Shown: piece after piece, positions 30,301 to 51,400 of the stretch
How the letters are laid out: each line of letters opens with the position of its first letter
How positions within the stretch are numbered: position 1 is the first letter of the stretch
Position numbers and translations under genes: made by a program
Source: a virus
DNA length: 64,000 nt
Reading direction: 5' to 3' (one strand)
IMG/VR virus record: IMGVR_UViG_3300033984_000416
Location: 32,001-96,000 of that record
The notes under the pieces: model-generated
Told to the model about the DNA's origin: nothing
What the model saw: only the letters and a program-made list of their open reading frames with translations
Database searches by the model: none

Positions 30301-33300
30301 TTCCATTAACAAATTCAAAGAACATTCTTTTGAATTCATTTTTTACCTGTTGTGGTAATCTATTAATAAGGTGTTCATCATCAATTTCTTGATAATCTAT
30401 TAACGCTGTAAGCTCTAAGGCTGTTACATACATATCTCGTGTAGGTGGTGTAAATGTTTGTGTTAAGTTTTTATGCCAAAGTATTGGGTCGTTCTTTCCA
30501 GAACCACCACCCGTTATTTTACCACCTTCAACCACTGGGTTGTTTGTTTGTTTTCGCCATATTATACTACCTATATAAGCACACCAAAGTCTAGGTGCGT
30601 GAACAAAACCACCTTTTTTATCAAACAAGTGTTTAATTTCATTTGTTTCTAAAGCACTACCTTTGGTTGTATTCCATGGAAGTGAATTTAAAAATAAAAA
30701 CGCTTTTGAATAATCACCACATGGAACCGTTGAGTTACTTGAAGTTGTTATACGTGCATATCCTTGGTTATAATAAAAATAACTACCAAATAAACTAAAA
30801 GAATCCTCATCATAAGCATCTCTATAATTAACGTTTTCAGATGCTTTAAACATAAAGGCTCTTTGTTCAACATAAGGGTAAGTAATATCTTTAACATTAT
30901 TGTTTATCCATTCGTTAAAAAAGTCTCTGTTTTTACCTAAATCTAAGTGAAGTGTATCTATTTTTTTTCCTTTATACCAACCTTTGTAAAACTCTTCTTT
31001 ATTTGCTGGTAGCCTAATGTTTCCAGTTTTTTTGAAATCCGACCATGATGTTGCTGAACTTCCGTCTGGTGAATTATCGTGTTTTTTTCTATTATACGCT
31101 AAACCACCATCTGTATTTTTATAAAACACAAACTCTAAGGGTAATTTAGTCATTCCATTACCATAATCTAAATTAGCATACTCTTGAATACCTAAAGGTC
31201 CACCAAATGTATTGTAACCAGCACTATTATCAACAATTTCATCGGCTGATAGTTTTTCCAATATTAACATATTGTTTTCTGGTTTAACTTTTTCTGGTGC
31301 TGGATATAAAAGTGCTTTTGTTTTAAACTCATCTGCTTTTAGTATTTTAATATAAACACCACCATCATCTGGTTTACTAAAATCACCATTTATTGTCGTT
31401 GCTGTACCATAATTAGAGCTGTAATTAGTTAAAAAAATGTAACCTTCTTCTTTTGATTTTAATGAAGTTTTAGCTGGTTCAATAATCCACTTACCAGTAT
31501 AACCACCATTAATTGGTATTACCATGTGTAAATCTGGATTACTGTACGTATATGTTTTTGTTTTTGTAGATACTGGGTTTCCACCAATATAGTTATAAAA
31601 ATAATTATCACCTAGAGGTTTTATTACATTTGTTGGTAATGCACCTCTAGCGTTTAAATCTATTTCACCAATTACACTAGTCACAGCACTTAGAGTTAAC
31701 ATAGACATCGATGATTTTATTTTAGGGTCTTTAACACCTCTTAATATGGCTTCAGATTCAATCTCGGCCATACTAATAATATCATCAGAAGTCATAATTG
31801 TTTCATCGTTTGTATAACCTAAAAAAGTCATACCTCTAATAACCATAAGTCTTGCAACTTCATCGTAATTTTTAAATTCCATTCTACTGTATGGCTCTGT
31901 AGTGTTAAAAATAGATGTATCAATTGGGTTGCTTGGGAACCAAGTTGTTTCTTGTTTTTCGGTATCCGCTTTAACATCTTCACTAGCTTTTGCGGCTTTT
32001 AAAAATGCCGCCAATAAATCATCAATAAATACTAATTCATTAACATCTTTAGGTTTTTCTAAAACACCTAAAGTACCTAAATATTTTTCAACATAGCTTT
32101 TTGTTTTTTCATCTTTTTCTCGATAATCTGGCCATGAAAAATATTTTTTAGTATCTAAATGTCTTTGCGTTAAATCACTATTTACAATATCAGTTTTAAA
32201 TTTTTTTTCTAGTTGGGTTGTTCTAGGGTCGTTTGGTTCAAATTCAGCCGCAACCGAAACATCAAAAATAGTTTCCATAAACACTTCAACGGCAGCTGTA
32301 AATACTTCTGTAATATTTCTAACGGTTGGTTCAAACCCTAAATCTTTTGCAACGCTACTTTTTAATTCTTTAGCAAATTCTTCTTTTGCCCCTTTTAAAT
32401 TTTGTTCAATTTGAGTTCTAGCCACAGATATTTTTTCAAATAATAAATTCATGTTGTAAATATCAACAACCACTTTTGGGTGATTAAATTTATAATTTGT
32501 GTTTAAATAATCATACAATTCTTTTTTGAATTTAGAAAAATCACTAGGTGAACCTAATGTTTGTTTTAAAACTTCATCAACCGCTGGGTCGCTAGTTGCT
32601 GGGTCTAGCATTTCTAAAGTTAAATTACCATAAAAACCCTTTCCTGGACCAGCTATGCTTATATCTTGAAATTCTTTAAGTACTAATTGAGCACCAGCTT
32701 TAAATGCGTTGAATGTGTCTATGTTTGTTTTAATATTCTCAGAGTATAACCCTATTGCTCTATCTTGATTTATTTTATCAGTGTCTGAAACTTCGTGAAG
32801 TTTCACGATATATGGGTATCTTTCTTTATTGGTATCAATATCAATAACTTGTCCCAATACTCTCATAACAATTTCTATAGCGTCTAGACTTTCTAAAGCT
32901 TTATTTATAGTATTTGTAGCAGCTGCGTTTTTAGATGATGATGATAATTTGCTTATACCTTTATTAACCTTAGAAATTGCTTGCATTAATTCAACCAAAG
33001 TTAATAATTGTGGTGCATCAGCTTTTCTATTGTCTCTATATTTTTGGTATTTATCTTCACCTATTGTTGTAAAAGGTATAGCTTTTAAATAACCAATAAG
33101 CATATCTGATAACATTGCGTAAGTATAACCGATAAATTGACATTGAATTTCAAAATTACCAGTTTGTGAATTAAATTTAGAACTAAATTTAAGCATGTGA
33201 AGACAATAAGTTACTGGTAACCCGTAGTATCCTTTTATTTCCAATTCAAACAATGGATATGGTAGTTGGAAAAACGTAGCATATTTATTACCACTATTAT

Positions 33301-38347: not shown

Positions 38348-38430
38348 AAGTAACTTATTTTATATATAAATACTATAGTAGTAAAAATTTTGAAAAAATA
38401 AATGCTTATGGTGTTTTATAAAAACAAAAA

Positions 38431-38449
38431 AAGGCACAATTAGTGCCTT
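38431..38449 (-). terminator. Intrinsic terminator downstream of tape measure and of the 38541 promoter
   Basis: aaggcac-aatta-gtgcctt, followed by a 7-U tract on the minus strand. Confidence 0.8.
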
Positions 38450-38522
38450 AATTAAAAATATATAATTTTATTTATATATATTATATTATTTATATATTAA
38501 TTTTATTATTTATATATTATAT
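38448..38522. repeat. 75-nt G/C-free tract with three TTATTTATATAT copies
   Basis: Copies start at 38468, 38486 and 38506; no G or C from 38448 to 38522. Confidence 0.9.
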
Positions 38523-38540
38523 GTTATTTTTTTATTTGTA

Positions 38541-38571
38541 CAAATATACGGTTTTTTTTTCATAAAGTCAA
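38541..38571 (-). promoter_or_regulatory. Bacteroidota-type promoter with no ORF before the next terminator
   Basis: Minus strand TTG-N20-TATATTTG, almost identical in form to the SSB promoter. Confidence 0.75.
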
Positions 38572-38627
38572 GTTAATACATATAAACTTTTATAACAATA
38601 TTCTAATTGATTGATAATCAACGATAT

Positions 38628-41309
38628 TTAAGCAACGTTTGTACCACCATTTCTATTCTTTTCTAATTGTGAAGCAACAGCTCTTTGTAAATCAGAAATA
38701 AATCCAGGATTTTTTAATAAGTCTACAGCAGCTTTAGGATTTCCTGGACTATCAACGGTTATTTTACCGTTGATAACTATCTCACCAAAATCTACTTTCA
38801 TATTATTTCCACCAGATTTACTAGCATTATCAACTATACCTTTATCCTTCAAGGCAATTAAATCATCTTTATTATCAATTGGGTGAATTTTACCACCTTG
38901 AACAACACCTCTACCCTTAGAAAAATCTGAACCTAAACCCATAGCCATATCACCCATAGCACCTAAAGGGTTTAGAAAAGCACCACCAACCCTAGCCGCC
39001 ATAGAATCCATACCACCTTCAAAGAAACCATCATGTGTTGGTGTCCCAAGCGATAACCCACCATTACTACTTTTACCCCAAACAGCGTCACCACCAACAT
39101 CACCTATTTTATCACCAGCCATACCACCAGCTATACCACCAATCAAACCACCAATAGCTGTACCTACACCTGGAAAAATCATAGTACCAATAGTAGCACC
39201 TAACGCAGCACCACCCCATGCACCACCACCAGCAGCGGCAGCTCTAACACCTGTTCTACCTACGTTTTCACCAGTACCCATTCCAGCAGCAGAGTTTTCA
39301 CTATATTCATCATAACCAGATACACCAGCAGCTAATAAACCAGCACCAGCACCACCCCAACCTTTAGCGAATTTACCAATCTTAGAAGCACTTCTAAGTC
39401 TACCTCTTTTACCACCTTTACCTAATAAATCACCAAGACTATCCATAGCACCGCCACCACCGCCACCAGCACTAGCGGCTGAATTAAAACCTTGAGCCAA
39501 CAACACACCATTAGAAATCCAACTTAACTTATCCCATAACATACCACCCAACTTAGTACCTAAATAAATAGCTGCACTCATGATAGGGTTATCAATAACA
39601 AAACCAGCAATACCAGATACTAACTCACCAACGGTTGTCGCTAATTTTTCTATCTTTTCACCCCAACCACCTTTAGCAGTAAACTTATCACTTAATTCTC
39701 TTAATTTTGGTATTAAATTTTTATTAAGAGTATCAATAAATGGTATTAGATAAACTTTCAATTGATTCATTAAATCACCCAAGGATTCATCGAAAGTTCT
39801 AGCATCCTCAGCTCTTTTTTTCATTGATTCCTGTTCAACCATTTGAGCTTTAACTGCTGTAAGGTCGGCTTGTGTTAATTGCTTAAGTAATTTTTTGTCA
39901 CCATTAAGCATAATACTAGCCTCACCTTTTTTATTTAACACTGATTTGTTTGTAAGATATTCTTGTAAATCTTTACCATCTTGACCACCGCCAACACTAA
40001 AATTAATTTGAGATTTAATCTTTGTATATTTAGCTGCGTTTTTACCAGCAGTAACCAAATCATCATAAGCAACACCTGTTTGCTCAGCAATAATCTTAAG
40101 TTTATGCATTTCCATAGCACCCAAGTCAAATTCACCAGTTTTAGCGTTAAATTTAGCCGAAGCTGCCGCAGCGTTACCTAATTCTTCTGTTAAACCGTTA
40201 ACATCGTTACGAGCCATATACATCAAATGGAAAGGGTCGGCCATCTTAGCCCATTCACCCCCCATAACTTGCAATTGAGCAGACATATCAACAGCACCCT
40301 CAATATCAAACATTTTATCAGCCATGCTAGAAGCAAATTCCATATTAACACCCAACTTGGTAACTGTTTTAGCCATCTTAGCCAAACCAGCGGTACCTTC
40401 TTTAAAATTATATCTGTTAAGCATTTTCATGTTACCAGATATATTTTTCATTACTTTGGTTGCATTAAGACCCATTTTATGAGCATCATTCATAGTCTGC
40501 TCAACATACTTACCAGTACGTTCAGCTGAAAGACCTTGATTTTCCATATCAGCAGCCATTTTAGCTGACCCTTCAGCACCTAATCCACTAGCAGCGGCCA
40601 TTTGACCCATAGCGACTAAACCATCTTGACTCAACTCAACTGTTCTACCTAATTCCTCACTATATTGAGCTTGCATTGCAGATAATTCTTTTATCCCAAT
40701 ACCCATCATGTTGGTTTGAGTAGCAGCACCTCTAATGGTGTTTCTAAAACCTTCTGTTCCTTTAGAAAGAATACCCATAGATAAAGCCGACATTTTCATC
40801 GCCTTATCTAATTCAAATAACCCTAACCCCTTTATTTCACCGTAACCTTTTTTAACTAAGTTCGGTAATCCAACTACAATTTTTTCTAAACCTTTTAATG
40901 ATGTAGTAAAAGCTTTACTAGCTACAAGTGCTTTTTTATTAACACTACCTAATGCTTCGTCTAACTTTTCACCTTGTTTTTTTATTTCTTTGGTTTGAAG
41001 CTCAAGGATTCTCAATTTCTTTTTTGCAGCCTCAATAGCTGTAGCATCTTTAGAAGCAATAGCATCTTTTAATTTATCTTCTAATTTTAATGCTATTTTT
41101 TCGTTTCTAGCAATAGTTTGTTTGATTTTTTTAGAATCTTTTAACCCTTGAATATAGTCTTCTAGGCTAGCACTTACTTTTTGTCTAAGTCTAGCATCTT
41201 CTTCAAGGGCTCTGGTTGCTCTTTCAACTTCATTAGCATAAAGTGCCGCCTCTTCTTTTAGTAGTTTGGCGGCTTTAGCTGCTGCTTTTTCTTCATCACT
41301 TTTTGCCAT
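38628..41309 (-). CDS. Tail tape measure protein
   Basis: A/G/M-rich helical 893-aa protein with Gly-rich hydrophobic C-terminal segments (GAALGATIGTMIFPGVGTAIGGLIGG); lies between chaperone and baseplate genes. Confidence 0.85.
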   Translation of the reverse strand: MAKSDEEKAAAKAAKLLKEEAALYANEVERATRALEEDARLRQKVSASLEDYIQGLKDSKKIKQTIARNEKIALKLEDKLKDAIASKDATAIEAAKKKLRILELQTKEIKKQGEKLDEALGSVNKKALVASKAFTTSLKGLEKIVVGLPNLVKKGYGEIKGLGLFELDKAMKMSALSMGILSKGTEGFRNTIRGAATQTNMMGIGIKELSAMQAQYSEELGRTVELSQDGLVAMGQMAAASGLGAEGSAKMAADMENQGLSAERTGKYVEQTMNDAHKMGLNATKVMKNISGNMKMLNRYNFKEGTAGLAKMAKTVTKLGVNMEFASSMADKMFDIEGAVDMSAQLQVMGGEWAKMADPFHLMYMARNDVNGLTEELGNAAAASAKFNAKTGEFDLGAMEMHKLKIIAEQTGVAYDDLVTAGKNAAKYTKIKSQINFSVGGGQDGKDLQEYLTNKSVLNKKGEASIMLNGDKKLLKQLTQADLTAVKAQMVEQESMKKRAEDARTFDESLGDLMNQLKVYLIPFIDTLNKNLIPKLRELSDKFTAKGGWGEKIEKLATTVGELVSGIAGFVIDNPIMSAAIYLGTKLGGMLWDKLSWISNGVLLAQGFNSAASAGGGGGGAMDSLGDLLGKGGKRGRLRSASKIGKFAKGWGGAGAGLLAAGVSGYDEYSENSAAGMGTGENVGRTGVRAAAAGGGAWGGAALGATIGTMIFPGVGTAIGGLIGGIAGGMAGDKIGDVGGDAVWGKSSNGGLSLGTPTHDGFFEGGMDSMAARVGGAFLNPLGAMGDMAMGLGSDFSKGRGVVQGGKIHPIDNKDDLIALKDKGIVDNASKSGGNNMKVDFGEIVINGKITVDSPGNPKAAVDLLKNPGFISDLQRAVASQLEKNRNGGTNVA

Positions 41310-45041: not shown

Positions 45042-45530
45042 TTAGAATAATAAAATAGCTCTGTCAAATCTAAGTGTTGCAGTAATCTCAGCAATACCAT
45101 CATCATCCATTGATAAATCTCCGAATGAAACGTTTGTTAACATAGTACCGTCAAGTAACCATTTTTCGATAACAACACCAGTTGGGTCAAGCATTTCAAG
45201 TTCAACAGGTCTTTTATAACCAGCTGCGTAACCTTGACGACCTGTAATAGATTCAGAGTGTAAACGAACCCACTCCATAATAGCTTGTGTAGCTGATGGC
45301 CCGATTGGGTCACGGAATGTTACGTCAATTGCTTCCCAAGTAAATCTACCAATAACCCATGTAGATGTATTAAGGAATGGGATTTCAACTTCATTTTGTG
45401 TAATTGAAGGTCTAGATGCAGAAGATAACCACCATTGTTGGATACCTAAATCTGCTGGGAATGTAATTAACCAACGATTCTTTTTCTTAGGCTCGTATGG
45501 TAAGGGCATTTTCATCAATAAATCAGCCAT
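45042..45530 (-). CDS. Tail tube protein (T4 gp19-like)
   Basis: EPKKKNRW...RPSIT...GRFTWEAIDVTFRDPI...WVRL...EKWLLDG...FGDLS; lies downstream of the sheath gene. Confidence 0.92.
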   Translation of the reverse strand: MADLLMKMPLPYEPKKKNRWLITFPADLGIQQWWLSSASRPSITQNEVEIPFLNTSTWVIGRFTWEAIDVTFRDPIGPSATQAIMEWVRLHSESITGRQGYAAGYKRPVELEMLDPTGVVIEKWLLDGTMLTNVSFGDLSMDDDGIAEITATLRFDRAILLF

Positions 45531-46439: not shown

Positions 46440-49286
46440 TTAGATGTTATCAAAAGATGCACCTGTATTCATAATTACAAATTCTAATTGAATGAACTCT
46501 AAAGCTCTTGTTGGTTTCAAGAAGATTTGACCAGTTAATTGATTTCTATCGATATCCTCTGGGTCATTCGAAAGAACAACACGGAAATCTGTAAGACCTC
46601 TTTCACTTCTAATGTTATCCAAGATTGGGTTAACAAGTGCCAAGAATTGGTTTCTAACTACGTTATCATTTTGTTCAAATAACAATCTGATAGAAACAGC
46701 AGAAATAAGTTTTCTAGCTTGTAATAACAATCTTCTAACGTTGATTCTGTTAAGTGCTGTATCTTTAACTTGAAGTGTTTTATTACCCCAGATTTTAATA
46801 CCATCACTTGTGAATGTAGCGATAGGGTTGATTCTATTTTCATAAAGAACATCTCTTTCAGCAAGAGTAAGTTTTTTACGAGCTTGAATAGCATCAACAT
46901 CACCTCTTTGGATACCAGCAACCGCAAACCATGGGAATGAAATGTTGTCAGTAAGTGCGATGTTTCTAACTACATCTCTTGTAGGTGGCATGAATATGTA
47001 AACATTGTTTTCAGCATCGTTTACTTGAATCCAAGGCCAGTAAGTACAAGAATAGTTACTATCGTAAGCACCATCTAAAGAGTCAGTGATATCTTCAACA
47101 GTCATTACATCACCACCACCATCTAAATCTGGAGTTGTCATGATATATAATGAGTCAGCTCTATCAGTTTCAATCATATCGATTGTAGCCTCAATAAGGT
47201 TAGAGTTATCTAAGTTATCAATACCAGGTGTAGCAAACACGTTAATGTTAACCGCTTCTGGGTTTTTGAATGTCCAAATAGCTTCTAAGTAAGCATAGTA
47301 ATCAGAGTTGATACCCAAGTCACCGTTTGTTAAGTTTCTAGGTACAAAAGCACCAGAAGTTGTACCGTTTTGTCCTAATGTTCCGTTGATTAAGAAACTA
47401 TCTAAATTACTTCTTCTAGTTCTATAAACATCCCATCCATCATAACCACCAAATGGTGCCATAGTAAATTTACGAGCATAAACTTTTTCGTATGGTCCAT
47501 TAACCAATCCAGAATCAGTTCTAAATTGCCAATCTCCAGTATCAAATGAGAATACAGGTGAATATGTATTACCGCTTGAATCGATGACAACAGTCACGTT
47601 ATCAATTGTAACAGCACTAGCATCAATATCCATGTGGAATCCGTTTGTCATACCAGTCCACATATTTGGAGAAGTAGTTAAAGGAATACCTTTGTAATCG
47701 AAGAAGTCAGCATCAATACCTACAGTTTCAGAAAGACCTAAGTAGAACTTACGTTTGTTTTCGTATTGTGTGTATTCAGTTTTGTATGTTAATTTAGGGT
47801 TAACAACTGAAGTATTACCATTAGTTTGGTAATCTCTAATTGGGAAACCTACAAAACCAGCTGGGAAAGCATCACTAGTATCAGATGTATCATCCATATC
47901 TACCAATACATAAGAAGATTTAGAAGGATATAAACCATCAAGTGTACCAATTCTTCTACCAATGTAGTTATTAGAAGTTGGGTCCATTGTACAACGGCTG
48001 TAACTTTCTAATACGGTTGGTTGAGCATCAGTATCATAGAAAGCTCTAATAACTACGTCAAATTCTCTAGTATCTGGTTTAATGTTTCTAAATGAAATTT
48101 TAAATTGTTCATTGGCAGCGTTACCATCAGAGATAGTCCAGAATCTGAAAAGTCTCAATACTTTTGTACCACGTAATTCAGATACAACATAAGGAGTAAC
48201 TGCTGGTTTGTATTCTTGTAAATAATCAGAGTAATCTCGATTATAATCAACGATAGTTTGTTTTATACCTCTAATTTTACCTTCATTGTTTAATTTATCA
48301 AACATTTTGTTGTAAAATTCTTCTAAAAATAATGGAGTGTTACCATTTTGAACACTTCTACCTAATACTCTAGGTAAATAGTTTTTCTTAGTTTTATCTA
48401 AAGACGCTAAATTTTCAAATAAGCCTTGTGTAGCAGAAAAACCACTCAAAGAGAAATCACCTAACGGACTAGTAATTGAACCAGTAAATGCTGGGTCAAG
48501 AACTACATTTCCAGTAACTTCAAAAGCTGGTAATTGTGTAGCTAAATCAATTCCACCTCTAGAACGCATCAAAGCAACTAATTTGTTTTCAACATCAGTA
48601 TATGCTGTACCTGTAATATCTACAGTTACACCAGTAGTTACACCAGTGATAAACGCACCAGAAGGGTCATAAGATTTATAATCTAAATAGATGTTAAATG
48701 ATACACCATTAAATACATTACCAGTTTTGATGAATTTAGGAGCAACATTAGAAGTAGCACCAATACTCATAGAACTCAAGTAAGCTAAATCGTTTGTTAA
48801 TTGACCATCATTAATAAGTGCTTGAACCATTGGGTCTGGAGACGTTACAGTCACCATTGTACCAGCAGAAGTTGCGGTAAATGTTAATAATGGGTTAGCA
48901 CTATCATATGTGTTAGTACCAGTAACAGCAGATGTTGCTGGGTCTAAAGCACCGTCAAGAACAATACCCCAAGCTTTACCAGCGTCATATCCAGAGAAAC
49001 CTAATACTCTAGTAACGAATAATTGGTTTGATTGAGATAAGTATGATTTTGCAATATAAGGTAACTCATATTGAGGTGCCCCATTATCTTTTACTTTTGT
49101 AGCGTTAAGGCCACCGAAGAAAGATTGGAATTCACCGTAGTTTCCAATAAAAATTGGTTGAAATGCTGGTCCGATAGTTGTTTCACCAACTAAACCTAGC
49201 GTTGTAACACCTACTTGACGTGTAATAAAAGTTAAGTCTTTTTCAGATGTATAAACTCCAGGACTTACGAATACTTTTGTTGACAT
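46440..49286 (-). CDS. Contractile tail sheath protein
   Basis: VFVSPGVYTSEKDL, GETTIGPAFQP and C-terminal WFAVAG..RG...RDVLYENRINPI...GNKTL...RINVRRLL...PTRALEFI. Confidence 0.97.
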   Translation of the reverse strand: MSTKVFVSPGVYTSEKDLTFITRQVGVTTLGLVGETTIGPAFQPIFIGNYGEFQSFFGGLNATKVKDNGAPQYELPYIAKSYLSQSNQLFVTRVLGFSGYDAGKAWGIVLDGALDPATSAVTGTNTYDSANPLLTFTATSAGTMVTVTSPDPMVQALINDGQLTNDLAYLSSMSIGATSNVAPKFIKTGNVFNGVSFNIYLDYKSYDPSGAFITGVTTGVTVDITGTAYTDVENKLVALMRSRGGIDLATQLPAFEVTGNVVLDPAFTGSITSPLGDFSLSGFSATQGLFENLASLDKTKKNYLPRVLGRSVQNGNTPLFLEEFYNKMFDKLNNEGKIRGIKQTIVDYNRDYSDYLQEYKPAVTPYVVSELRGTKVLRLFRFWTISDGNAANEQFKISFRNIKPDTREFDVVIRAFYDTDAQPTVLESYSRCTMDPTSNNYIGRRIGTLDGLYPSKSSYVLVDMDDTSDTSDAFPAGFVGFPIRDYQTNGNTSVVNPKLTYKTEYTQYENKRKFYLGLSETVGIDADFFDYKGIPLTTSPNMWTGMTNGFHMDIDASAVTIDNVTVVIDSSGNTYSPVFSFDTGDWQFRTDSGLVNGPYEKVYARKFTMAPFGGYDGWDVYRTRRSNLDSFLINGTLGQNGTTSGAFVPRNLTNGDLGINSDYYAYLEAIWTFKNPEAVNINVFATPGIDNLDNSNLIEATIDMIETDRADSLYIMTTPDLDGGGDVMTVEDITDSLDGAYDSNYSCTYWPWIQVNDAENNVYIFMPPTRDVVRNIALTDNISFPWFAVAGIQRGDVDAIQARKKLTLAERDVLYENRINPIATFTSDGIKIWGNKTLQVKDTALNRINVRRLLLQARKLISAVSIRLLFEQNDNVVRNQFLALVNPILDNIRSERGLTDFRVVLSNDPEDIDRNQLTGQIFLKPTRALEFIQLEFVIMNTGASFDNI

Positions 49287-49406: not shown

Positions 49407-49425
49407 TCATACTTTTGTCATACTT
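49407..49425 (+). promoter_or_regulatory. Candidate operator: TCATACTT direct repeat
   Basis: TCATACTT at 49407 and 49418 (11-nt period), directly upstream of the RHH gene. Confidence 0.45.
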
Positions 49426-49437
49426 ATGATAAAAACA

Positions 49438-49590
49438 ATGATGAAAAGGGATAAAAACTTAAAAATAACACCAACAACACATGAACTTTTAAAAAAGTAT
49501 TGTGAAGAAAATGGTTTAAAAATGTTTGCTTTTGTGGAAAAATTAATTCGAGAAAGATGTTCACCGAAAAAAGATTTATATGGTGAATAG
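49438..49590 (+). CDS. Small ribbon-helix-helix (CopG/Arc-like) DNA-binding protein, 50 aa
   Basis: Below the ORF-track cutoff. MMKRDKNLKITPTTHELLKKYCEENGLKMFAFVEKLIRERCSPKKDLYGE shows the beta strand (KNLKI) plus two-helix RHH pattern. Confidence 0.7.
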   Translation: MMKRDKNLKITPTTHELLKKYCEENGLKMFAFVEKLIRERCSPKKDLYGE

Positions 49591-49611
49591 TGATATTCAA
49601 TTAGATTAAGA

Positions 49612-49643
49612 AAGCTCTCTCCGTAACTTAGTTGAGAGAGCTT
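49612..49643. terminator. Strong bidirectional terminator ending the ncRNA (-) and the RHH gene (+)
   Basis: aagctctctc-N12-gagagagctt, perfect 10-bp stem. Confidence 0.85.
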
Positions 49644-50361
49644 GGTTTTTATCGAATAGAGTTCTAGAGTTCTTTTCGCTTAACCACTCCTAATCATTAG
49701 AAGTGATAGTCTGAGTCATTCCCTTTACAAAAACGGAACTTATTGTTGTGTGCAACCTTTACAGGGATAAAGGCCCGATATAGTCATACGTCTCCACTGT
49801 TCTATACCAAACCCAATCAAATAAAGTCCTCGCTTCCACCGTTTTGCTCATTGAGTTTTATCGCTCACGGGCTCCCTTAAGTAATAGGGGGTTACTCGAA
49901 TATTTATTTAAAAGACCCAAAAAAGTTAGGGTCGCACACAGTTACATTTACTAAGCTCCACAGCATGATTACTCACATTGCTTCTCAGAACAGTCTATAA
50001 CCCAACAATTCCTCGCCAGCATTACAGCATGACACAAATTAAGTTAAATATCTTAACTACCAACTCGATTACAAAATAAGCACCACTAAATCCACGCCTC
50101 GACTTTTACAGTCATAAATTTACTTTAGCCCTATGATAACCGAGTCGTTACCGACATATCACTTCTTTTTGGGTTGAGTTTCGAAATGGCTTAGCCAAAT
50201 CTAGATACATTAACTTGGTTTGGCAGAAGGAGCTAACCATCTCATCCACTCACAGTAGATACCTCGTTTCTTATACCTTAGTCATTTGTGCACGGAATGG
50301 TAACCACCCCTTTCGGTAGAATTAATAACTACCATGCATTTCCCAACTAATTTCTCAACCC
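49612..50361 (-). ncRNA. Large (~750 nt) highly structured non-coding RNA candidate, GOLLD/ROOL size class
   Basis: No ORF in the track; visibly more G/C than its flanks; many hairpins and several long-range helices (50354-50361/50171-50178; 50157-50165/49700-49708; 49987-49994/49796-49803; 49934-49940/49747-49753); ends in a terminator. Confidence 0.75.
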
Positions 50362-50380
50362 TTATTTATTATTATACGTT

Positions 50381-51400
50381 TTAATACGTTTTTTTTACTT
50401 TAGATTTTTTAGGAACATAATTTATGTTCTCTAATTTACCTTTAAGTACAATAAGGTTATCAGTTGCAGCTTTTAATGATTCATAAACACCAAGTCTATA
50501 AGTTGATAAATTTGATAAACCAGCTTTTTTATAACCATTAATAAGATTCATTAAATTTGTATATAATTTTTCATTTGTAAAGTTATCAAGAATTGTTGTT
50601 TCTTCATCAGTAGCGAATAACGCTCCTAATGATTGTTTTTTAGTAGCAGCTATTTGTCTTTCTAACACCTTTGCTTGTGTTTCTAAAAAATTAACTTCAG
50701 TAATAACATCAGTTAACACTACTGGCATTTTACCATTTGGATAACTATCAGTAATCAATTTATCAATAACCGATTGTCTAACAACATAAAAAGGTATATC
50801 AATATGACCTTCTGCCTCATATTCTGCTCTAATTGTTAATAGCTCCACTTCTCTTTCAGAGATTTTCCATTTTTCAAAAGCGACAGCCGTAGCTTCTTTT
50901 TCTGCTTGTTCTATTAAAGCAATATTTTCTGGTGTGTCCCCTTGAACAATACCTGTTGTGTTTCTATAATCTTGTATAAAAGCTCTAAAATTATCTGTAA
51001 CATAGTATTGTTCCATGGTATCAAACATAGGAAATTTTGGTTCTGTTACCATAATATCCCTACTAATTTTTGGCACGGCACCAATGTAGTTTTCTAAATT
51101 TTGAAATAACCTATCATTAGGTGTAACACTAAAAAATGGGTATCTTTTTCCATTGATAATTGCTGTTAAATCTAATGATACAGAATAACCAGTTTCCATG
51201 TCTGCTTCAAAGCTTAAAGTTTCTTCTAATTTTTCTTTTGTTGTTGTACCTTTTTTCTCAAAAGTAACACCATTCATCATATGATATACTAATATGTCAT
51301 ATTCAATAATAGCCTCTGGCGTTTCTAATATTCCAGAATTATTTTCTTCTTCTTCCATTATAAGTAATGCTACTTTTTTTCTAATCGAACCTTGCATCAT
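50381..51400 (-). CDS. Hypothetical protein (339 aa)
   Basis: ORF with ATATTTAT upstream; basic tail KKSKVKKTY; stop lies 20 nt before the ncRNA candidate. Confidence 0.7.
   Translation of the reverse strand: MMQGSIRKKVALLIMEEEENNSGILETPEAIIEYDILVYHMMNGVTFEKKGTTTKEKLEETLSFEADMETGYSVSLDLTAIINGKRYPFFSVTPNDRLFQNLENYIGAVPKISRDIMVTEPKFPMFDTMEQYYVTDNFRAFIQDYRNTTGIVQGDTPENIALIEQAEKEATAVAFEKWKISEREVELLTIRAEYEAEGHIDIPFYVVRQSVIDKLITDSYPNGKMPVVLTDVITEVNFLETQAKVLERQIAATKKQSLGALFATDEETTILDNFTNEKLYTNLMNLINGYKKAGLSNLSTYRLGVYESLKAATDNLIVLKGKLENINYVPKKSKVKKTY

Follow-up and report, generated by a model that had tools for sequence, protein, structure and literature searches.

What does a large phage keep in a long stretch of its virion gene module that encodes no protein? 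The question is raised by a 64,000-nt window (positions 32,001 to 96,000) of the IMG/VR record IMGVR_UViG_3300033984_000416; coordinates below are those of the window unless a contig is named. The record comprises 121 kb with a CheckV completeness of 36%, implying a phage genome of ~340 kb, and its source is an uncultured, T4-like freshwater jumbo phage. From the stop codon of a 339-aa open reading frame (ORF) down to ~49600, 781 nt (49601-50380) contain no ORF, close to the ~790 nt given by a sequence-only reading of the locus. This gap carries 14-26 stop codons in each of the six frames and, the contig end aside, no other ORF-free stretch in the 121-kb record reaches 300 nt. The elevated G/C content that had been reported was reproduced, with a GC fraction of 0.38-0.40 in the gap versus 0.33 for the genome and 0.22-0.28 for nearby spacers, and the minus strand of the gap is G-rich. 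Extensive minus-strand folding was likewise recovered, the minimum free energy (MFE) of 49612-50361 on the minus strand being -210.9 kcal/mol (z = -2.6, 20 shuffles).

The gap lies among virion genes which, in addition to the tail tube and tail sheath genes, encode a baseplate hub-like protein and a 281-aa protein weakly similar to virion structural proteins. The small ribbon-helix-helix (RHH) gene next to the gap had been assigned to the operon strand; it is actually on the plus strand and convergent with the RNA described below, and gene callers place the RHH genes of relatives on the opposite strand as well. Two ORFs overlap on opposite strands at 49424-49600. Similarity to Arc-like RHH repressors is confined to the plus-strand ORF, and the minus-strand ORF of 58 aa is probably spurious. 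Elsewhere in the window, an A/T-rich spacer (38350-38630) upstream of a 1430-aa ORF contains repeated TATATAAATAA units.

In order to establish whether the gap is retained in other phages, relatives of the 339-aa protein were collected. Fourteen were found among 5.8 billion proteins, with 41-84% identity in gap-bearing loci. A gap following the 339-aa homologue, in equal gene order, was present in contigs from ENA, JGI and Logan representing about ten uncultured phage lineages from freshwater and other aquatic samples. The gaps of these relatives span 460-800 nt and the RNAs 420-760 nt. The collection comprised nine full-length distinct copies and the window's own, one copy (L019) missing only the 5' start, and four 5' fragments. 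A scan for the invariant 3' motif, performed with no protein guide, yielded two extra copies, L019 and L020, with a replaced 5' domain. Pattern scans with the 5' and 3' motifs across IMG/VR, JGI metagenomes and GTDB genomes recovered only L018, L019, L020 and L022, with no prophage or host copy; L021 and L027 were rejected as chance motif matches, since they sit in coding or GC-rich unrelated DNA. Protein-guided scans of IMG/VR returned only one already known contig, and no similar sequence was returned by a blastn search of the RNA in 50,697 phage records. Judged by the sheath, the nearest cultured phage is Microcystis phage Mel-JY01 (190 kb); its sheath gene is not preceded by a gap, and its sequence gave no match to the 3'-domain model. 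The host group is a small clade of jumbo phages, uncultured and from freshwater, whose sheath is distantly T4-like, and the genome fragment studied here carries one copy of the RNA. The RHH gene is missing from L014, L015 and L026, all of which retain the RNA, indicating that it is a neighbour and not part of the RNA. In L026 (220-1380) the RNA is intact but the 339-aa homologue is broken into ORFs of 191 and 79 aa and a C-terminal portion that was left uncalled; the split may reflect assembly errors or real decay.

The copies share a common plan, consisting of a 5' domain built on a four-way junction (D1), a long-range helix (PL) closing a hypervariable centre (D2), and a nearly invariant 3' domain (Table 1). 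An unconstrained MFE fold of the window RNA (50361-49602) includes every core helix.

Table 1. Features of the RNA locus in window coordinates. Subtracting an RNA position from 50362 gives its window coordinate; end positions are predicted from helices.
Feature	Position	Strand	Remarks
Tail tube gene	45042-45530		Virion neighbour
Tail sheath gene	46440-49286	minus	Virion neighbour
Arc-like RHH repressor gene, 54 aa	49426-49590	plus	PHROG Arc-like repressor, E 8e-5
Whole RNA gene, ~758 nt	49604-50361	minus	Limits from covarying P1 (5') and P9 (3')
3' domain, nearly invariant three-way junction	49604-49695	minus	Covariation, RNAalifold, unconstrained MFE
P9 (GAUUAGGA with UCUUAAUC)	49688-49695 with 49604-49611	minus	Encloses P10+H2 and hairpin T
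Terminator-like hairpin T, 10 bp	49612-49643	minus	Double changes in 6/10 pairs
P10 (GGUU/AACC)	49682-49685 with 49644-49647	minus	
Hairpin H2	49653-49678	minus	
H2 loop AACUCUAGAACU	49660-49671	minus	First 11 bases invariant in 11/11 copies
PL 3' strand UAUCACUUC	49700-49708	minus	
Hypervariable central domain D2	49709-50156	minus	~450 nt here, 190-460 nt in relatives
PL 5' strand GAAGUGAUA	50157-50165	minus	Pairs with 49700-49708
5' domain D1, four-way junction	50171-50361	minus	MFE folds of 7/8 copies
P1 GGGUUGAG/CUCAACCC	50354-50361 with 50171-50178	minus	Compensatory changes
P5, variable hairpin	50184-50201	minus	
P4	50273-50278 with 50203-50208	minus	Compensatory changes
P2	50345-50350 with 50278-50283	minus	Compensatory changes
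P3, variable three-way junction	50289-50338	minus	
A/T-rich motif AAUAAA(A)UA	50362-50380	minus	Abuts first G; kept in all copies
339-aa ORF	50381-51400	minus	Directly upstream of RNA in every locus found
ORF starts preceded by GATATTTAT(A)	1865, 42779, 45530, 46360, 49286, 51400, 55266, 61733	minus	

To determine whether this fold is maintained by selection, base pairing was evaluated across the copies and compared with slid controls. Eight core helices were anchored on invariant motifs by a script, because MAFFT misaligns P2 and P4; the 5' strands of these two helices were taken as the best match in a 14-nt (P2) or 8-nt (P4) window, which introduces a slight bias. In these helices 97.9% of cells were paired and double changes occurred at 22 of 58 positions, compared with 34-51% paired and 1-3 double-change positions in the slid controls. 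In the 3' domain, according to the tool count, 96.9% of cells were paired and 8 of 29 pairs showed double changes, compared with 41-62% and 0-1 pairs after sliding by 1-3 columns. The corresponding values for P1, PL, P10, H2 and T in the full alignment were 98.3% and 12 double-change pairs, with 38-54% and 0-2 pairs in the slid control. In both sets the covariation score exceeded that of all 500 shuffles, a significance that is inflated by the relatedness of the copies, which represent about ten lineages and perhaps five deeper groups. Furthermore, RNAalifold predicted 123 pairs from six copies, 25 of them with double changes, and recovered PL, P9, P10, H2 and T without input from the authors. 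The excess of G-U over A-C cells in the eight core helices (47 versus 6) identifies the minus strand as that of the RNA, as had been proposed, and UUCG tetraloops also occur on this strand.

The region is non-protein-coding, with a fold conserved by compensatory changes. A decayed protein gene or a functionless spacer with chance folds might be suspected in DNA that carries no annotation, and A/T-rich genomes yield many short hairpins. Against this stand the doubly changed core positions and the collapse of pairing on sliding, the lack of an open frame in any relative, the UUCG tetraloops in the copies, and the selective presence of the RNA in metatranscriptomes (see below); this explanation is considered extremely improbable.

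The helix comparison also separates the pairings proposed by the sequence-only reading. Closure of the 5' domain by GGGUUGAG/CUCAACCC corresponds to P1 and is supported by the relatives, as are the stems GGUAG/CUACC and GGGGUGG/CCAUUCC, which are arms of the variable three-way junction P3. The stems GAGAUGGUU/AGCCAUUUC and GCCAAA/UUUGGC are present in the sequence but cross the covarying P4 and have no counterpart in relatives, and were discarded. The pairing GAAGUGAUA/UAUCACUUC, said to close a second domain, is PL, a helix of 9-10 bp separated from D1 by a 5-nt linker; 97% of its cells are paired across 11 copies and double changes occur in 4 of 9 pairs.

Within D1 the junction sequences CGAAUG, CUAGA and UCGAAA are conserved while the arms vary widely. 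The domain measures 95-271 nt depending on the copy, P3 may be as small as a 2-bp hairpin or as large as a branched domain of 140 nt, and P5 has 17-100 nt. The compact minimal form is L014, with 419 nt in total and a 95-nt 5' domain; its single-sequence MFE fold differs from the architecture given by the other seven of eight copies. In L019 (4648-5130, minus strand) and L020 (836-1575, minus strand) the 5' domain is replaced and the layout is unchanged. This alternative domain has a P1 of GGAAAUAG/CUAUUUCC and contains both GAAUG and CUAGA, while P4 is substituted by a hairpin with a GUAA cap. A D2 of the window type is retained in L020 despite its different 5' domain, suggesting that whole domains have been exchanged between lineages.

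D2 occurs in at least four different versions among the copies, and in B-type copies it is enlarged by added UUCG-capped hairpins. Hairpins of the form GGGCUUCGGCCC number four in each of L008 (6340-6833), L010 (6373-6870) and L023 (3109-3606), two in each of L015 and L026, and one in L005. A further D2 module, a short hairpin whose hexaloop is conserved (UUUGUGU-(stem)-UGUAAU-(stem)-GAG-GGAAU), is found in the window-type D2 (50025-50055) and in L014, and is duplicated in L020. The detailed D2 fold predicted for the window agrees only in part with the substitutions of close relatives (L002 and one metatranscriptome contig), which keep 11-12 pairs and break 7-9.

In the 3' domain, the H2 stem covaries beneath its invariant loop (C-G to U-A, G-C to A-U). 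The 12-nt loop AACUCUAGAAC carries the adenine-flanked 6-nt palindrome UCUAGA, and CUAG/UCUAGA motifs recur in the junction J4/5 and in several T loops. The RNA had been described as ending at the 3' stem; it probably runs 8 nt beyond that limit, to ~49604, as predicted from P9, in which UCUUAAUC following the hairpin pairs with the upstream GAUUAGGA. A local hairpin immediately after PL (CACUUCUAA/UUAGGAGUG in the window) can be drawn in each lineage but in an inconsistent register, and it was dropped in favour of P9, which has one double change and a constant register. At the start of the 3' domain, the invariant GGUUAAGYRA (49679-49688, RNA GGUUAAGCGA) is identical to the 5' end of bacterial 23S rRNA, which reads GGUUAAGCGA in E. 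coli; the resemblance may be a coincidence, and Rfam LSU models gave no match in the region at E<=10.

Evidence for transcription was obtained from public RNA libraries. Parts of a 2.8-kb stretch around the RNA are contained in 11 RNA-labelled runs of ten studies, mostly freshwater or aquatic, and expression was examined from assembled contigs in four runs (X1-X4) of four studies. Contigs of 680 nt (49660-50339), 696 nt (49641-50335) and 538 nt (49646-50183) had depths of 23, 23 and 13, respectively, and a further set of shorter contigs covered 49658-50347; all were confined to 49641-50347. By comparison, the 339-aa ORF had a depth of 2-3 in X4 and was uncovered in X1, X2 and X3, and the RHH gene was uncovered in all four runs. 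Such contigs give neither strand nor exact ends, and DNA can occur in RNA libraries; since carried-over DNA would cover the flanks evenly, the simplest reading is that the RNA is far more abundant than its neighbours. The RNA thus accumulates in natural samples as a discrete species far above the flanking genes. The contigs end 14-26 nt before the predicted 5' end and just ahead of hairpin T, a shortfall expected from the poor coverage of transcript ends, and the 3' limit is not proved thereby. Together, the covarying fold, the lack of coding capacity and the presence as RNA are the generic marks of a structured noncoding RNA gene.

The signals at either end of the RNA were examined with regard to its origin. 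The A/T-rich motif preceding the first G occupies the 19-nt interval between the 339-aa ORF and the RNA and could be a candidate promoter element or processing site. It differs from the GATATTTAT(A) motif, which is found 15-45 nt upstream of many virion-gene start codons on the minus strand and is probably the phage's promoter for these genes. No GATATTTAT motif was present in front of the RNA, and a simple scan detected no convincing sigma-70-like promoter ahead of it and no canonical terminator. An RNA that has no GATATTTAT and starts 19 nt past a stop codon behind an A/U-rich motif points to another promoter or to cleavage of the operon transcript. The 5' end would then arise from cleavage within the A/U-rich motif or from a promoter that reaches into the last part of the 339-aa ORF, and the 3' end would be protected through the P9 pairing of the last nucleotides. 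As for the perfect 10-bp terminator stem previously proposed at the 3' end, the stem itself is upheld by covariation, and a terminator function is less certain. A Rho-independent terminator has a GC-rich stem and a short loop, immediately followed by at least 5 U; here the loop is 11 nt, the RNA-strand tail UUUCUUAAUC is a poor U tract that pairs in P9 instead, and the hairpin was uncalled by the simple terminator scan.

These end signals could also be taken to suggest that the RNA is a cis-acting part of the late operon, either a stabilising or terminating 3' untranslated region that insulates the operon from the RHH gene, or a leader of the sheath gene. The start just behind a stop codon with no recognisable promoter would suit such a role, as would the end hairpin, which reads as a good plus-strand terminator for the RHH gene and is followed on that strand by GGUUUUUAU; in L014, L015 and L026, moreover, the RNA is directly upstream of the next same-strand gene. 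However, an opposite-strand gene separates the RNA from the sheath gene in the window, a multi-domain fold of this size with invariant loops exceeds what a terminator or stabiliser needs, and RNA-library contigs cover the RNA at a depth of 23 with the upstream ORF at 2-3 (X4) or absent (X1-X3). A cis-acting role is regarded as improbable.

In order to assign the RNA to a known family, the window and nine relatives were searched with Rfam 15 cmscan, which gave no matches at the gathering score. At E<=10 only four chance-level matches were obtained for the region, and at E<=5 only chance-level matches for L010; these (a PyrG leader on the 3' hairpin, a miRNA and snoRNAs) were rejected. Neither GOLLD (RF01998), ROOL (RF03087), OLE, HEARO, group I or II introns, self-cleaving ribozymes, RNase P nor tmRNA models matched, and ARAGORN detected no tRNA or tmRNA in the 64-kb window. 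Outside the unnamed candidates of the IMG/VR catalogue of Fremin et al. 2023, a literature search found no paper describing this family.

A ribozyme, an intron-like RNA or a mobile element, for instance a self-cleaving domain or a group I or II intron remnant, would be in keeping with the large size, the conserved junction nucleotides, the fixed distance to the upstream stop codon, and the whole domains swapped between lineages, as in L019 and L020 with their other 5' domain. Yet intron and self-cleaving ribozyme families gave no match even at E<=10, no split exons flank the RNA, no intron-encoded protein is present, and the RNA occurs as a single copy per genome in a constant place; such an origin is very unlikely.

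The sequence-only reading had offered two identities, a relative of GOLLD or ROOL and a new class of giant phage RNA. The former is unsupported, with neither an Rfam match nor nearby tRNA genes, while the latter agrees with the covarying fold, the discrete metatranscriptome species and the same negative Rfam search. The RNA resembles GOLLD and ROOL in kind, not in sequence, and on this comparison it belongs to neither family. GOLLD, likewise an ~800-nt noncoding RNA that phages or prophages encode and whose function is unknown, also combines a conserved 3' part with variation elsewhere. Its usual setting is beside tRNA genes in phages and prophages, whereas the RNA described here is within the virion module of a T4-like jumbo phage. 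ROOL is likewise a large ornate phage and prophage RNA with no known protein partner, and differs in architecture, setting and habitat, the present RNA being from freshwater and other aquatic samples. The RNA is further distinguished from both by its fixed place between neck-side genes and sheath, its host group and its domain-level mosaicism. GOLLD and ROOL form RNA-only homo-oligomeric cages; in the present RNA a palindromic invariant loop is seen.

The reading preferred here, and considered likely, is that the locus is a separate gene for a large structured noncoding RNA of a previously undescribed family. Action in trans as a stable late RNA is judged quite likely; late expression is plausible and is suggested by where the gene lies among the virion genes. 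The working core would be formed by the 5' and 3' domains, with D2 as a tolerated peripheral expansion, and the active surface would include the invariant H2 loop and the invariant junction sequences.

Self-association by loop-loop kissing of H2, leading to a dimer or higher RNA assembly, is proposed tentatively, by analogy with known RNAs, and is favoured by the adenine-flanked palindrome. In HIV-1, the DIS hairpin presents a loop with an adenine-flanked 6-nt palindrome and forms a homodimeric kissing complex. The H2 loop, AAC-UCUAGA-AC, has a matching layout; the analogy concerns one hairpin and implies no relationship. Whereas the DIS palindrome is GC-rich, UCUAGA would yield only two G-C pairs and a weak kissing duplex, and a 6-nt palindrome in a 12-nt loop has a chance of ~10% at random. 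Kissing loops are among the contacts holding OLE dimers and ROOL and GOLLD multimers together (PMC12286853). The H2 palindrome could make a contact of the kind by which ROOL is partly assembled. Other partners of the H2 loop were considered. Pairing with the UCUAGA of J4/5 is unlikely given that the UCU there belongs to the covarying P4 (J4/5 reads CCUAGA in L002, compensated within P4, and UAUAGA in L026). Pairing with the T loop can be drawn per lineage but in different registers, and no antisense target of the loop was found in the 121-kb genome fragment.

The same invariant loop and junctions might instead bind a protein, the RNA serving as the scaffold of a ribonucleoprotein with no self-assembly; the partner could be a phage protein, such as the 339-aa protein or some other neck or virion protein, or a sequestered host protein. 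The 339-aa gene is directly upstream in every locus, 19-20 nt away, invariant single-stranded motifs beside covarying stems are typical protein sites, and the recurring CUAG/UCUAGA in J4/5, the H2 loop and several T loops would suit a repeated binding site. On the other hand, nothing points to a particular partner, and the linkage to the 339-aa gene is partly an artefact of the way in which loci were collected. Neither Pfam nor PHROG has a family matching the 339-aa protein, and its AlphaFold2 model, of moderate confidence (pLDDT 67), gave no fold match in the PDB and no RNA-binding clue. A protein-binding scaffold is a rather unlikely explanation, nearly as likely as kissing self-association.

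A more specific form of the self-association reading is judged improbable, namely that the RNA has a structural part in the virion pathway and assembles itself into a ring or cage in neck, tail or packaging steps. A precedent is the phi29 pRNA, an RNA of ~170 nt from small podophages that acts in virion morphogenesis and multimerises via loop-loop pairing; its loops are complementary between copies, while the H2 loop is palindromic. The position of the RNA between neck genes and sheath is that of the terminase genes in T4, and we know of no requirement for RNA in T4-like packaging. If true, a virion-pathway RNA cage would extend the use of RNA in morphogenesis beyond the phi29 group for the first time.

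Few RNAs are large and intricately folded with a conserved, tertiary-looking core and, to our knowledge, every known class (rRNAs, RNase P, group I and II introns, OLE, GOLLD, ROOL) has proved to be a machine or an assembly. The present family is new, while its kind, the large ornate phage RNA, is already known through GOLLD and ROOL. Its fixation in the virion module, and not beside tRNAs, suggests a biology different from that of GOLLD and ROOL. The compact 419-nt form of L014 makes the family tractable for cryo-EM, SHAPE and oligomerisation tests. Furthermore, its domain mosaicism, with a swapped 5' domain and a D2 growing by UUCG hairpins, amounts to nature's own test of which RNA parts are indispensable, in a new RNA family that is clearly expressed in nature.
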